Source: Candidatus Micrarchaeia archaeon
GTDB lineage: Archaea; Micrarchaeota; Micrarchaeia; Micrarchaeales; CABMGC01
Assembly: GCA_049964835.1 (NCBI GenBank)
Contig: JBMFWW010000013.1
Coordinates: forward strand, 1-19,189
Direction: 5' to 3'
Length of the DNA: 19,189 nucleotides
Shown here: positions 12,001 to 15,000 of the stretch, piece after piece
Position numbering within the stretch: the first letter of the stretch is position 1
How the letters are laid out: every line of letters begins with the position of its first letter
Position numbers: made by a program

Positions 12001-15000
12001 CTTTTTCTACAGCTATGACCTCTTTTGAAACTTTGCATAACTCTTCGGTTAAAATGCCGCGCCCAGGACCTATTTCAAGAACTACTTTATCTTCTCCGTG
12101 AGCAGCCTCTGCAAATGCAACATTTTTATTTATTAAAAAATTTTGGCCTAATTTTTTATTGGGTTTTATAATCATAAAATCAAGCAGTATATTTATATTA
12201 TAACAAGTATAAAAAGTAATTTGATTTTAAATGACAAATATAGGTGCAATATTTAGCGGAACTGCTTCGGTAGCGATACTAAACAAGTATGGATATCTAG
12301 CTATATTTATACTAATGATTCTAGAATCAGCATCATTGCCAATACCCAGCGAGGTGATACTTCCAATAGCAGGAGTCATTGCTTTCCAAGGTGTATTGAA
12401 CTTTTATCTTATTTTAGTTGTAGCAACATTAGCTGGCATAATTGGTATTACTATAGATTATTACATAGCGTATCTGTTAAGCAAAGATTTGTTTTATAAG
12501 CACCTAAAATTTTTTAGGGTTAAGAAAGAAACATTAGATAACTTCGATGCTTGGTTTAATAGAAATGGGGTGGCAGCTGTCTTTTTCATGCGTATGGTTC
12601 CAGTCTTAAGGGGATTAATAAGCTTCCCTGCTGGTTTTTCAGGAATGAATAAAAAGAAGTTTTATTTATACTCAATACTCGGCTCGCTAGTTTGGGATGT
12701 ACTACTTTTGTCATTCGGATTTTATGCGTTAGGCACAAGTAATGTAGCAACAGCTATCATACTTATGTCAATCTTAGCAGTAGGATTATATCTCATTTAT
12801 ACAATAGTAAATAAAAAACTTAAAAAATAAAAATAAATTACTCCTTCTTCTCTAAAATGTGGGTTTCTACTATCTTTATTACTTGATCTATTGATTTCTT
12901 TATGTCTGCTTCTGTTTTAGATCCTGTACAAATTATCTTTCCATTCTTAAATAAAAGAAGTGCAGTTTTTGGAGAGTGTATTTTGCATATTGCACCAGGA
13001 AACTGCTCTGGCTCATAATCTACATCAGGAGACGATTTTGCTATAGCGTATAAATCTAACTCTACTCCTAAATCTGCACTTGCAACTATATTTTCTATCT
13101 TGAAATCAGGATGAAGTATTGACTTCTTACTAGTTTTTTCTGTTTTTGGTTTTTTTGACATTGCACCACGCTTTATAAATGGATATGAAAGGTATTTATA
13201 TGTTTTTCTATAAAACAATATTTGATATTATAAAGTAGTTGATACTATGTCACAAAGATCTCACGGATTATTTATAGGTAGAACAAGAAATCTTGCAAGG
13301 CACAATAAACCTTCCACGTTAGGTATAACTAAATTAATAAAAAATTTAGAAATAGGAAGTAAGGTAGTTATATCACAAAAAAGTAACTTTAGAAACATAC
13401 CACACCCTAGATACAAAGGCAGAATTGGAACGGTTATAGAAAGGCGTGGAGACTCTTATGTTGTAGAGTTTCCAGTATCTAAATCTATTAAAAGAAAACT
13501 TGTAGTGCCGCAAATGCATCTAGAAAAATTTGAATAAACTTTTTTATTGTTTAAATTTTTGTGCTGGAGGCCTAGTAAGTATATAAAACCTAGTTTCTCC
13601 TTTTAATTCTATTAGTATTCTTTCTGTAAGTAATTTTATAGGATCTTGCAAAAGTTGCACTCTGTTTATCATATCATCAAAACTTTCGAATGGCTTTTCA
13701 TCTCTTGCTTCAAGTAGAGATATAAGATGTTTCTTGCCTATTCCTGGCAAAAGCTCCAAAGAATGCATACGTATATTTATAGGAGAGGCTGCATTAAAAA
13801 AGTTTACAAACTTTTTCTCATTGCTTTTTATTATATTAGTAATTGCTATTGGTAGCTCATTCTTTGCAACTTCAGTAAGATTTTGGTATGTTAACCTTGC
13901 TTTTATTAAGGATATTTTATCCCTATCTCCCTTCCCTATATATAATCGTTCTTGTATCTTGATGTTTTGGTCCTTAGGAACAGCTTCTAATAGTGTAAAT
14001 CTTAACTCGCCAATTATTTGAACAATGGGCTCTGATCGTACAGAAAAAGACCTTCCAGTAGATAGATAATCGAGTACAATACCATACTCTTCCAAATCCT
14101 CTCTTCTCTGTTCAAAGTCTTGCATGTTGTTACGCCTTTTTTCATTAAGATTTACCCTTGTTATCTTCTATTAATGCCATTATTTTTTTAATTGACTCTT
14201 CATCTGGCATATCCTTTTCATTAGTAAGTATCTGTTTTAATTGTGATTCATCAACCGGCATTACATCTACTATCTGTATTGCTGATTTCTTGCTTATTCC
14301 CATGCTTTCCAACTGTTTGAATAGCTTTTCAGCCTTTGATATATCTATACTTAAAAACTTCTTAATGTGATCATATGAAACTTGCTGTTCGTAACCCATG
14401 TCTCCCTCCTTCATTCTTTTTTCTAGTATTTCTAAAGCCTCAGCAGTTGTTATTGGCTCACTTCCAGTATTCTTATTAACCATGCTCTACACCTTCAGTT
14501 ACGAATAGATATTTGAATATTATATATTATAAACCTTTTGTTTTGAAAGTAATGATAGATTAATATAACTAATATAATAGGTGTAAAAGACCAATTAGCT
14601 TATGAATAGTATCGGTATTTTCGCTCACATTGTTAAATTTACATTGAATGGAGTTAAAGGTATGGAAAGTAGACAATACTATATATTATTATTTTTTGAA
14701 GTTTTAGTACATTTGGTGTATTATTGGAACCGGAATTAGTGTATAAAGAGTTAATCGATGAAATGCATAAACACATAGCTGGAAAGATAGAAACAATTGA
14801 ACTTATGATAATAGCTATTGTTGCAGATGGACATGCTCTTCTTGAAGGAGTTCCAGGAGTCGCAAAAACAACTATGACAAAGGCATTAGCAGATACGATA
14901 CAAGCTGATTTTAAAAGAATCCAGGGAACCCCAGACATAATACCAAAAGATATCATAGGTTATGTTTATGAAGATGAAAAAACAAAAGAAATAAGTTTTT

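Follow-up and report, generated by a model that had tools for sequence, protein, structure and literature searches.

A half-size, single-repeat TATA-binding protein gene as the probable sole TBP gene of a Micrarchaeota genome

The window analyzed here is the whole stretch of 19,189 nucleotides from contig JBMFWW010000013.1 (positions 1 to 19,189) of a "Candidatus Micrarchaeia archaeon" genome (GCA_049964835.1). On its minus strand, an ATG-to-stop open reading frame at positions 12838 to 13161 (stop codon included) encodes a protein of 107 amino acids (aa) with a single TATA-binding protein (TBP) repeat. This protein (P0001) is referred to here as paralog A; its stop-to-stop frame in the six-frame reading is 129 aa. 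PF00352 matched it once, with 100.4 bits (cut-off, 22.9), over residues 19 to 99 (12865 to 13107, minus strand), which correspond to positions 1 to 83 of the 85 in the model. Ahead of strand S1 lies a lysine-rich N-terminal tail, MSKKPKTEKTSKKSILH (residues 1 to 17; 13111 to 13161, minus strand), which had low pLDDT in the monomer model. The 3' end of the gene is abutted by a gene for a VTT/DedA-family membrane protein (12231 to 12830, plus strand; PF09335), beyond which lies the gene for the KsgA/Dim1 rRNA adenine dimethylase (11402 to 12175, minus strand; PF00398). On the other side, a divergent spacer is followed by the genes for ribosomal protein L21e (13247 to 13537, plus strand; PF01157), which is a conserved divergent neighbor of the TBP gene, a DUF655 protein (13544 to 14125, minus strand; PF04919, 202.4 bits), and RNA polymerase subunit Rpo4/RpoF of the Rpb4 family (14145 to 14483, minus strand; PF03874). 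DUF655 and RpoF belong to a conserved cluster, as does KsgA in relatives. With the VTT/DedA gene on one side and the L21e gene on the other, the locus has no room for a second TBP repeat.

The spacer between the TBP and L21e genes (13162 to 13246) is 85 bp long and, as read from the sequence, contains A/T-rich, TATA-like words. One of these, ATATAAATA, lies on the minus strand at 13201 to 13193, 32 to 40 nt upstream of the paralog A start codon, and a palindrome, TTTATAAA, is found at 13172 to 13179. Words resembling TTTATATA were 3.3-fold enriched upstream of genes in this genome. Motif discovery in 413 upstream regions of the genome (30% G+C) returned a weak A-rich plus TTTTTATATA motif with few good-scoring sites. 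The TATA-like words of the spacer may act as promoter elements. The start codon of paralog A is immediately preceded by GGTG; since a GGTG-like signal at −9 to −6 is general in this genome, most of its genes have leaders.

A second single-repeat gene, paralog B (G000:C12, L002:1438-1770), encodes 110 aa with one PF00352 repeat (91.9 bits; cut-off, 22.9). The searched assembly comprised 805,809 bases in 46 contigs, with 3,569 N, and was 94.43% complete. Paralogs A and B were the only matches in a six-frame PF00352 scan of it at an E value of ≤10, and no two-repeat TBP was found. A lineage-specific HMM run with --max against 14,468 six-frame segments likewise recovered only A and B (155.5 and 129.9 bits), the third-ranking match scoring 9.2 bits (E = 0.62). 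The initial annotation, which described half-size TBP genes in a genome without a two-repeat TBP, was therefore correct for this assembly. Because the assembly is 94% complete and contains 3,569 N, the absence of a two-repeat TBP rests on closed relatives. Ordinary TBP has two tandem repeats in one polypeptide that form a pseudo-symmetric saddle; paralogs A and B, at 107 and 110 aa and bounded by neighboring genes, each carry one. Against the 10 NCBIfam full-length TBP models (including PRK00394; cut-offs of 181 to 347 bits), A scored 91.4 and B 89.4 bits, and each spanned half of the model. Scores this far below every NCBIfam TBP cut-off fit the naming of these proteins as "hypothetical protein" in NCBI records. 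The stated identity of 40 to 48% to either TBP repeat was close to that for solved archaeal TBPs (40 to 44%) and too high for canonical repeats in general, which averaged 33 to 39% (range, 25 to 51%; core region). For transcription factor B (TFB), the genome carries one normal gene with two cyclin repeats.

Relatives were scanned with PF00352 in two sets, 81 genomes of the family, including this one, and 201 genomes of the phylum; these tallies take in two unpublished genomes (G035 in both sets and G105 in the larger), one genome each, and no statement depends on them. Within the family, 79 of 81 genomes had a match (one match in 40 genomes, two in 36, three in 2, and four in 1), and the 2 genomes with no PF00352 match were 81 to 83% complete. 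Each full repeat stood alone in its own frame of 87 to 206 aa, except on contig C77 of G042, where two repeats lay within a 191-aa frame; two matches, in G056 and G062, were short fragments. As described initially, the closed genomes G018 and G033 had exactly one match each (E ≤ 10), a single-repeat paralog A. Five closed genomes of family f2 had two single-repeat frames each, 115 to 763 kb apart, and no two-repeat frame was found in any of these seven closed genomes. Across the phylum, 197 of 201 genomes had a match. Single-repeat frames occurred in the DNA of families f6, f9, f10, f11, f13 to f17, f19, f21, and f23 to f25, and two-repeat frames of 189 to 220 aa occurred in f3, f4, f5, f7, f8, f12, f18, and f22. 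The two-repeat frames of G042 (C77) and G196 (C43) grouped among canonical archaeal TBPs in the tree and are probably foreign contigs in their bins, so that the claim of a single-repeat state throughout the family was upheld apart from a G042 frame of canonical type. What had been taken for a repeat remnant in G019 (C39, at a contig end) is instead a duplicate of that gene's own 3' end, with 97 nt identical, fused in frame upstream. Short contigs with an apparently chimeric structure accounted for three further records (P0070, P0091, and P0138).

The genomic setting of paralog A is that of a TBP gene. In all 10 f1 loci, the TBP gene adjoined the L21e-RpoF-DUF655-KsgA cluster, and L21e was directly adjacent to the TBP gene, whether of one or two repeats, in these 10 loci and in 14 of 16 loci from 14 other families. 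All 16 of the latter had one or more cluster genes (L21e, RpoF, DUF655, or KsgA) within about 2 kb, and the two-repeat TBP genes of f3, f4, f5, f7, f8, f12, and f18 shared their neighborhood with paralog A. Among the 10 f1 loci examined, 7 shared the VTT/DedA neighbor. Since paralog A occupies the spot beside this cluster that is held by the two-repeat TBP in sister families, it is the positional ortholog of that TBP.

Paralog A is under strong purifying selection (pN, 0.07 to 0.15; pS, 0.69 to 1.05); the values for paralog B were 0.09 to 0.18 and 0.75 to 0.93, respectively. Residues Y49, E50, P51, E52, Q53, F54, P55, and G56, as well as F71, G74, and K75, were invariant in 50 aligned homologs, and these motifs aligned with their counterparts in both repeats of the Pyrococcus woesei (1PCZ) and Methanocaldococcus jannaschii (2Z8U) TBPs. 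In TBP, a phenylalanine pair in each repeat kinks TATA DNA, and an acidic stirrup motif is contacted by TFB/TFIIB. F54 (in YEPEQFPG) and F71 (in LLLF) aligned with the DNA-kinking pair, a correspondence tested by conservation. Neither repeat was favored when paralog A was aligned with P. woesei TBP (68.1 and 74.8 bits for the two repeats) or with M. jannaschii TBP (72.3 and 71.7 bits). The AF2 monomer model (pLDDT, 83.2) had the order S1-H1-S2-S3-S4-S5-H2 and the fold of a TBP lobe, in which a five-stranded sheet is combined with two helices, and it superposed on TBP lobes with a root mean square deviation (rmsd) of 0.8 to 1.6 Å over 77 to 80 columns. All 44 PDB matches returned by Foldseek for this model at an E value of ≤0.001 were TBP chains (rmsd, 0.8 to 3.3 Å). 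P0003, a natural two-repeat relative in one covalent chain, was modeled as a full saddle (pLDDT, 93.5; pTM, 0.83; TM score, 0.82 to 0.92 to solved TBPs), a prediction to be read with the many TBP structures that AlphaFold has seen. By alignment, the linker between its repeats is a copy of the tail equivalent to the N-terminal tail of paralog A.

The relationship of the repeats was examined in an unrooted tree of 85 columns. Micrarchaeota repeats, whether single, N, or C, formed one clade (98/95) apart from canonical N and C repeats, and larger quick trees gave this clade SH-aLRT values of 100 and 97; one long-branch canonical N repeat intruded in one quick tree and was removed from later trees. 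The canonical set was defined by an N-C identity of ≤45% (61 of 74 representatives). Addition of 15 left-out proteins placed 5 of them, with both of their repeats, and a single long-branch canonical N repeat within the Micrarchaeota-type clade. In approximately unbiased (AU) tests, with groups named after the quick tree had been viewed, holding the canonical N repeats together was not rejected (P = 0.477), and holding canonical and Micrarchaeota N repeats together was rejected (delta lnL, 129.9; P = 8 × 10−5). In the careful tree, the Micrarchaeota clade attached beside three canonical N repeats and not between N and C. The two repeats of sister-family TBPs were 46 to 76% identical to each other (median, 68%; 18 genomes) versus a median of 37% in the 61 canonical representatives, and those of P0002 and P0003 were 89% and 92% identical. 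By these comparisons, the two-repeat TBPs of the sister families were probably rebuilt from a one-repeat stage. Proteins with three or four repeats (P0121, P0122, P0214, and P0134) were set aside; judged by their sequence motifs, they look haloarchaeal-type, plant-like, or otherwise unrelated, and they come from outside the Micrarchaeota.

Paralogs A and B of f1 and f2 formed a clade (100/99) that excluded all N and C repeats, canonical or Micrarchaeota-type. A and B are paralogs that arose by duplication within the order, and B is missing from many genomes of the family, including the closed G018 and G033. Profile HMMs of N and C repeats (cross-validated accuracy, 86% for N and 93% for C) gave log-odds of −3.9 to +5.2 bits for 172 single repeats, a range inside the overlap of true repeats, and single repeats were not assignable to N or C in this way.

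Taken with the locus, these data bear on what the gene is. A cut TBP gene, with A as the N half and B as the C half of an obligate A-B heterodimer, is an unlikely origin, even though split genes occur in other small archaeal genomes. At the six most N/C-divergent columns, A was N-like (+5.3) and B was C-like (−4.4), with E23 and A67 in A and Q and V in B as examples; the N and C profile HMMs gave A +2.0 and B −3.6 bits; B aligned to the C half of all 10 NCBIfam TBP models; and both genes were retained in all 5 closed f2 genomes. These log-odds nevertheless fall within the noise of true repeats, and the common A-B clade without any N or C repeat, the closed genomes with A only, and the 40 of 81 family genomes with a single match argue against two halves of one gene. 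The weakly N-like signal of A and C-like signal of B leave room for a heterodimer as the main form in this genome, and an A-B heterodimer is possible as one of several forms there. The chance that the data reflect a misassembly, or a two-repeat gene that was truncated or frameshifted, is negligible. Assemblies of metagenome-assembled genomes can break genes, and the G019 contig end and the apparently chimeric records show that odd cases occur, but 79 of 81 family genomes, and closed genomes too, have the same complete short frame with its own start and stop and with flanking genes, the genes adjacent to it leave no space, and the frame is under strong purifying selection. It is also very improbable that the protein has another nucleic acid-binding role, like the monopartite TBP-domain proteins of Thermococcales, and that the real TBP was either overlooked or supplanted by a different factor. 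Euryarchaea do have single TBP-domain proteins of unknown, nonessential role (Brindefalk et al. 2013, PMC3597702), but these always accompany a full TBP, from which they differ greatly in sequence. In contrast, a full TBP was absent from the seven closed genomes searched here (E ≤ 10), the gene lies at the TBP locus of sister families, and its product reaches 100 bits with the TBP profile and keeps the conserved TBP motifs.

A further reading is that the lineage never duplicated the repeat and that its one-repeat TBP descends in a direct line from the ancestor that all TBPs had before the duplication, as the initial annotation had proposed for a surviving ancestor. Single repeats that fit neither N nor C among the 172 scored, equal alignment to both repeats of solved TBPs, and an unrooted tree that allows a place for the Micrarchaeota clade on the N-C stem all count in its favor. 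This reading is nonetheless given little credence, slightly less than another nucleic acid-binding role. Eukaryotic TBP has two repeats, as did 50 of 57 loci without a Micrarchaeota or Marsarchaeota label, which came from many phyla, including other DPANN labels. Two repeats across archaea and eukaryotes place the duplication before the archaeal radiation, so that a relic would require the phylum to be the first branch, ahead of all other archaea and of eukaryotes. The position of the clade beside three canonical N repeats and the rapid changes in repeat number within the phylum, which indicate a labile state, also count against it, and the Micrarchaeota clade looks derived. The ancestral claim was accordingly not sustained: the state with one repeat is best explained as secondary, an analogue of the TBP ancestor and not a relic of it. 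A one-repeat ancestor and a two-repeat ancestor whose repeats were homogenized by gene conversion before one was lost would be indistinguishable in the tree.

The reading considered likely is that paralog A is the TBP of this organism in monopartite form, a single lobe of 107 aa that works as a noncovalent dimer and represents a secondary state. No two-repeat TBP was found in this assembly or in seven closed genomes, the gene lies at the TBP locus, it is conserved, and its phenylalanine and YEPEQF residues are kept. On these grounds, it most likely serves as the sole TBP of the cell, as had been proposed, and must pair to form a saddle. Dimerization, DNA binding, and TFB docking of paralog A are predicted on this basis. 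Two chains would pair as the N and C repeats of ordinary TBP do, through the same lobe-lobe interface, and so rebuild the ten-stranded saddle, A pairing with A or, in this genome, alternatively with the faster-evolving paralog B on C12. The saddle modeled for the covalent chain of P0003 lends such pairing indirect structural support. The paired saddle would bind and bend A/T-rich TATA boxes through the phenylalanine pair of each chain, and TFB would dock on a YEPEQF stirrup. Because the stirrups of an A2 dimer would be identical, the direction of transcription would have to come from TFB reading the TFB recognition element (BRE) on one side; it is reasonable to infer that the orientation of initiation depends on TFB and BRE.

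The one-lobe state may have been reached in an early Micrarchaeota ancestor. Paralog B would then have originated through a gene duplication on the stem branch of the order, with later loss in many genera, and in other families and some individual lineages, the one-lobe gene may have been duplicated in tandem and fused to restore a TBP with two lobes. More broadly, we give even chances to the proposal that the Micrarchaeota passed through a stage with a one-lobe, homodimeric TBP that served all transcription, in which most families remain, and that the origin of TBP was replayed there several times in parallel. According to this proposal, one large clade of families would have remade a two-lobed TBP by tandem duplication and fusion (repeats 46 to 76% identical), and P0003 (92%, with the tail-copy linker) and G019 (in-frame copy with 97 nt identical) would be very recent refusions. 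The order of this genome would have made a free-standing B that drifts toward C at a few signature positions while A stays N-like, with an asymmetric two-gene heterodimer as the outcome.

TBP is needed to initiate transcription throughout archaea and eukaryotes. To our knowledge, each characterized cellular TBP has two repeats in one chain, and we know of no living example of the one-repeat homodimer from which TBP is inferred in textbooks to have originated. A search of the openly accessible literature, supplements excluded, found no lineage reported to rely on a one-repeat TBP as its only TBP. PMC8407392 counts TBP only as conserved in DPANN, PMC7221094 contains none of the terms "single repeat," "homodimer," and "DPANN," and a 2026 structural paper still draws the monopartite TBP prototype as hypothetical (PMC12917281). 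If the proposed reading is true, the idea of a monopartite ancestor could be tested directly, including whether a perfectly symmetric saddle can give directional initiation with TFB and BRE alone, what covalent linkage adds, and how N/C asymmetry arises. Relatives with freshly re-fused or separately duplicated copies would serve as natural intermediates. Because annotation pipelines miss one-repeat genes, which appear as "hypothetical" in NCBI, surveys may score Micrarchaeota as lacking TBP.

Among known systems, canonical archaeal TBP (two PF00352 repeats, about 180 to 200 aa) belongs to the same repeat family as paralog A (100.4 bits). The lobes of archaeal TBPs with solved structures (P. 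woesei, 1PCZ/1AIS/1D3U; M. jannaschii, 2Z8U; Sulfolobus acidocaldarius, 1MP9) were 40 to 44% identical to it, with an rmsd of 0.8 to 1.6 Å, and the motifs ..NIVAS.., YEPEQFPG, and LLF.NGK are common to both. In contrast to canonical TBP, paralog A has one repeat per chain, its saddle needs two chains, and a homodimer would be perfectly symmetric. A more distant likeness is seen in the N-terminal TBP-like domain of RNase HIII (PF11858/DUF3378), a single TBP-like lobe for which paralog B gave a weak, subthreshold match (E = 0.0018; 18.9 bits; cut-off, 27). The RNase HIII lobe binds double-stranded nucleic acid, but it differs from paralog A in being part of a bacterial nuclease, remotely related, and without a role in transcription initiation.

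Halobacterial TbpA resembles paralog A as a free-standing single TBP domain with a sequence close to that of genuine TBP repeats, but it is reported to coexist with full-length TBPs and to be nonessential (Brindefalk et al. 2013, PMC3597702); this genome has no full-length TBP, and its gene lies at the TBP locus. The monopartite TBP-domain proteins of Thermococcales are also free-standing (about 82 to 136 aa, with one predicted TBP-domain fold), and by their published description (Table 3 of PMC3597702), they are highly diverged from the TBP of their own genome, cluster apart, and always occur with a normal TBP. Paralog A is set apart from this class by that description: it is a bona fide TBP repeat without strong divergence (100 bits on PF00352; 29 to 51% core identity to canonical repeats), and no two-repeat TBP accompanies it in this genome or in the seven closed relatives. 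Also related are the two-repeat TBPs of the sister families (f3, f4, f5, f7, f8, f12, f18, and f22) and P0002 and P0003, which share the repeat clade (98/95) and the locus with paralog A but carry two repeats per chain and look like re-fused or homogenized forms of the one-repeat gene.

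The TATA-binding protein (TBP) gene in the window (paralog A; positions 12838 to 13161, minus strand) was a complete ORF of 107 aa (MSKKPKTEK...ILEKKE) with a single match to the Pfam TBP profile PF00352 (residues 19 to 99; 100.4 bits versus a cut-off of 22.9). A VTT/DedA membrane-protein gene (12231 to 12830, plus strand) abutted its 3′ end, and the gene for ribosomal protein L21e (13247 to 13537, plus strand) faced its 5′ end across 85 bp; with these genes on either side, the locus has no space in which a second repeat could hide. Paralog B, on another contig of the same genome (C12, L002:1438-1770), encoded 110 aa with one PF00352 repeat (91.9 bits) and was 48% identical to A over 85-residue cores. 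Directly upstream of B (L002:149-1381, plus strand), a 410-aa protein with many tandem APAYV(S/T)PYNGYN-like copies and a hydrophobic C-terminal stretch looked like a repetitive surface protein. Across 413 upstream regions of this genome, a GGTG-like Shine-Dalgarno signal was found at -9 to -6 before start codons (G 0.31, G 0.29, T 0.51, G 0.37), so that most genes seem leadered, not leaderless.

No TBP other than A and B was found in the source genome, G000, with PF00352 in six frames (E ≤ 10) or with an unfiltered lineage-specific HMM built from the repeats collected in this analysis and run on 14,468 six-frame segments, in which A and B scored 155.5 and 129.9 bits and the third-ranked match 9.2 bits (E = 0.62). 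Since the assembly (805,809 bases in 46 contigs, 94.43% complete) contains 3,569 N, absence from G000 alone is no proof, and its relatives decide. PF00352 matches were present in 79 of 81 genomes of the family f1, G000 counted (one match in 40, two in 36, three in 2, and four in 1); the two genomes with no match were 81 to 83% complete. Each full repeat in the family stood alone in a frame of 87 to 206 aa, with the sole exception of contig G042:C77 (191 aa, two repeats). The closed, one-contig genomes G018 and G033 had exactly one match each (E ≤ 10), and five closed genomes of f2, a sister family in the same order, each had two single-repeat frames 115 to 763 kb apart and no two-repeat TBP frame. 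Two-repeat frames on G042:C77 and G196:C43 (repeat-to-repeat identity of 37% and 44%, respectively) clustered in a tree with canonical (ordinary archaeal-type) TBPs, away from their supposed relatives, and from this placement both were taken for foreign contigs within bins. The initial annotation had stated that two single-repeat genes stand in place of a two-repeat TBP gene, and the two profile scans of G000 together with the closed relatives confirmed it. The family and phylum tallies include the unpublished genomes G035 and G105, one genome each, and no statement rests on either.

Paralog A is the TBP ortholog. Beyond the divergent L21e gene, its neighborhood contained genes for RpoF (Rpb4 family), a DUF655 protein, and KsgA; L21e adjoined the TBP gene at all 10 f1 loci examined. 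At 16/16 loci from 14 further families in the class, one or more of these cluster genes lay within ~2 kb of the TBP gene, and L21e was directly adjacent at 14 of the loci. The cluster was kept beside one-repeat TBP genes (f6, f9, f10, f11, f13, f15, and f16) and two-repeat TBP genes (f3, f4, f5, f7, f8, f12, and f18) alike; in G109, the only f2 genome examined, neither of two single-repeat copies was at the cluster. Purifying selection on both paralogs is strong, with pN of 0.07 to 0.15 versus a saturated pS of 0.69 to 1.05 across genera for A and pN of 0.09 to 0.18 versus pS of 0.75 to 0.93 for B. Residues invariant among 50 aligned homologs (Y49-E-P-E-Q-F-P-G56, F71, G74, and K75) lined up with the same motifs in each repeat of the solved Pyrococcus woesei and Methanocaldococcus jannaschii TBPs. 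We take the two Phe of a repeat to be the DNA-kinking pair of one lobe and YEPE(Q/L)F to be the stirrup contacted by TFB/TFIIB. G000 has a single TFB gene of normal form, encoding two cyclin repeats. The half-size proteins scored far under the NCBIfam TBP cut-offs and were named "hypothetical protein" in NCBI records versus TBP in JGI.

An AlphaFold2 monomer model of A (50-sequence alignment; pLDDT 83.2) had the order S1-H1-S2-S3-S4-S5-H2, and all 44 of its Foldseek PDB matches at E ≤ 0.001 were TBP chains, the best at rmsd of 0.8 to 1.6 Å over 77 to 80 columns. P0003, a natural public protein of 187 aa, carries two repeats of the Micrarchaeota clade with mutual identity of 92%; its model (pLDDT 93.5, pTM 0.83) matched solved TBPs as a whole saddle (TM 0.82 to 0.92). 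This predicted saddle suggests that lobe-lobe packing is compatible with two near-identical repeats of the Micrarchaeota type, in a chain that is covalent and with a predictor that knows TBP well. The best-supported reading of the sequences is that the half-size proteins are the cell's only TBP, rebuilt from separate halves by putative pairing and with putative binding. Genomes with A alone would be forced to use an A2 homodimer, and A2, B2, and AB are all possible in G000. At the six columns with the strongest canonical difference between first (N) and second (C) repeats, A was N-type (sum, +5.3) and B C-type (-4.4), and N/C profile scores put A at +2.0 bits and B at -3.6 bits; in each of the ten NCBIfam TBP models, B also aligned to the C half. 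Both sets of N/C values are within the noise for single repeats, so a division of labor between A and B is weakly hinted at, as a lead only.

The two repeats of Micrarchaeota two-repeat TBPs are far more alike than usual. Across 18 genomes from 8 families, their identity was 46 to 76% (median, 68%), and it reached 89% and 92% in the public proteins P0002 and P0003, versus 26% to 62% in 74 archaeal-length representatives and a median of 37% in 61 "canonical" ones, a set picked at ≤45%. Repeat cores (85 columns) from single-repeat proteins, Micrarchaeota N and C repeats, and two-repeat proteins from an all-database search were used for trees. In an unrooted IQ-TREE analysis (81 rows, LG+C20+F+G4 via PMSF), 51/51 Micrarchaeota-type repeats, whether single, N, or C, fell on one side of a branch (support, 98/95). 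Quick trees gave the same split at SH-aLRT of 100 (153 rows) and 97 (151 rows); one long-branch canonical N repeat intruded among the Micrarchaeota type in the 153-row tree, and its protein was dropped before the 151-row tree. Adding 15 filter-excluded proteins brought both repeats of 5 of these proteins into the Micrarchaeota-type clade, along with one long-branch canonical N repeat. In AU tests, with groups named after a quick tree had been viewed, holding the canonical N repeats together was not rejected (P = 0.477), while holding canonical and Micrarchaeota N repeats together was rejected (129.9 lnL units worse, P = 8e-5); the 15 Micrarchaeota-type N repeats alone held together were 98.7 units worse (P = 3.5e-5). 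A and B of f1 and f2 formed one clade (100/99) in the IQ-TREE analysis, and B formed a clade on a long stem (100/99). The joint clade marks B as a paralog that arose by duplication within the order, on its stem, and leaves A and B as the N and C halves of a split TBP unsupported. B was lost later in many f1 genera, including both closed genomes.

Two public two-repeat proteins, P0070 (186 aa; contig of 889 bases) and P0091 (182 aa; contig of 840 bases), combined a canonical repeat 1 (EQFPGLVYRL...SGK) with a repeat 2 that ended Micrarchaeota-type (EQFPGAILKL...FKNGK); these are either recombinants or chimeric assemblies. P0138 (127 aa, single repeat) was B-like in its first half and A-like in its second, possibly an A/B recombinant or a chimeric contig. 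The 167-aa frame of locus L163 has ~70 Lys/Ala/Pro-rich repeat residues (KKAVKKKPAAKKK...) before a single TBP repeat and would be a half-size TBP with a highly basic tail if the upstream ATG is used. L167, labelled Methanothrix sp., carried a B-type single-repeat gene nearly the same as that of the f2 genome G166 and is probably a mis-binned contig; NCBI labels for these proteins, "Marsarchaeota" and "ainarchaeum" among them, seem unreliable as well. P0121 (272 aa, from the representative library) is a three-repeat TBP of haloarchaeal appearance with its first two repeats near-identical and N-type, and repeat-number change may extend beyond Micrarchaeota. In the f6 genome G161, one contig (C1) carried single-repeat TBP genes at 448260-448502, 893905-894144, and 1045410-1045655, and three matches each were also found in two congeners, G179 and G202; the half-size gene has thus expanded by paralogy more than once.

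A quick-search tree of 19 genomes from the four neighboring genes (584 columns) divided the class at SH-aLRT 95 into a single-repeat-only group (f1, f6, f9, f10, f11, f13, and f16) and a group of the two-repeat families f3, f4, f5, f7, f8, f12, and f18 plus single-repeat f15, with two changes of repeat number needed. The simplest account of both this tree and the repeat tree would be the loss of one repeat in an early Micrarchaeota ancestor, a later rebuilding of the two-repeat gene in place in one large clade, and further, recent re-fusions within the single-repeat group. Two cases would illustrate such recent re-fusion. In a quick tree, P0003 was placed beside a single repeat of f11 (SH-aLRT 99), and its inter-repeat linker aligned as a repeat of its own N-terminal tail. 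On the minus strand at the end of contig G019:C39 (L045, in the first 412 bases of the reverse complement), a second copy of the final 33 codons of the single-repeat TBP gene lay directly upstream of it; this partial copy was in frame, lacked a stop, was identical over 97 nt, and ran on to the full copy without an intervening start codon. The arrangement reflects either two copies being fused by a very recent tandem duplication or a contig-end assembly artefact.

As an alternative, a two-repeat ancestor could have had its repeats homogenized by gene conversion before one was lost in part of the class, and this fits the same trees as a history with a one-repeat stage. A true relic of the pre-duplication TBP, the "living example" of the single-repeat ancestor that the initial annotation saw here, is unlikely and went unsupported: two repeats were found in 50/57 loci from many phyla, these being the subset of 80 named genome loci left after those labelled Micrarchaeota or Marsarchaeota were set aside. 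Of the remaining seven, two were frames cut by a contig end and five were whole single-repeat frames of the Micrarchaeota type from contigs whose labels were vague or doubtful, one of the five being the B-type gene on the Methanothrix-labelled contig. The overall pattern resembles a natural rerun of how TBP originated, in which a one-repeat stage would be followed by repeated remaking of two-repeat or two-gene forms, and this is the most interesting part of the finding.

No report of a lineage with a one-repeat TBP as its sole TBP was found in the literature searched. TBP is simply listed as conserved in the available portion of a DPANN comparative paper (PMC8407392), the terms "single repeat," "homodimer," and "DPANN" are absent from the text of a 2020 survey of TBP evolution (PMC7221094), and the monopartite prototype is still hypothetical in the available portion of a 2026 paper (PMC12917281). 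Free-standing single TBP domains are known from Halobacteria (TbpA) and Thermococcales, those of Thermococcales being far diverged from their own full TBP, according to the accessible part of the source (PMC3597702). Unlike the single-repeat genes of G000, which occur without a full TBP, the single domains of Halobacteria and Thermococcales are described in the same part of that source as always accompanying one (PMC3597702).
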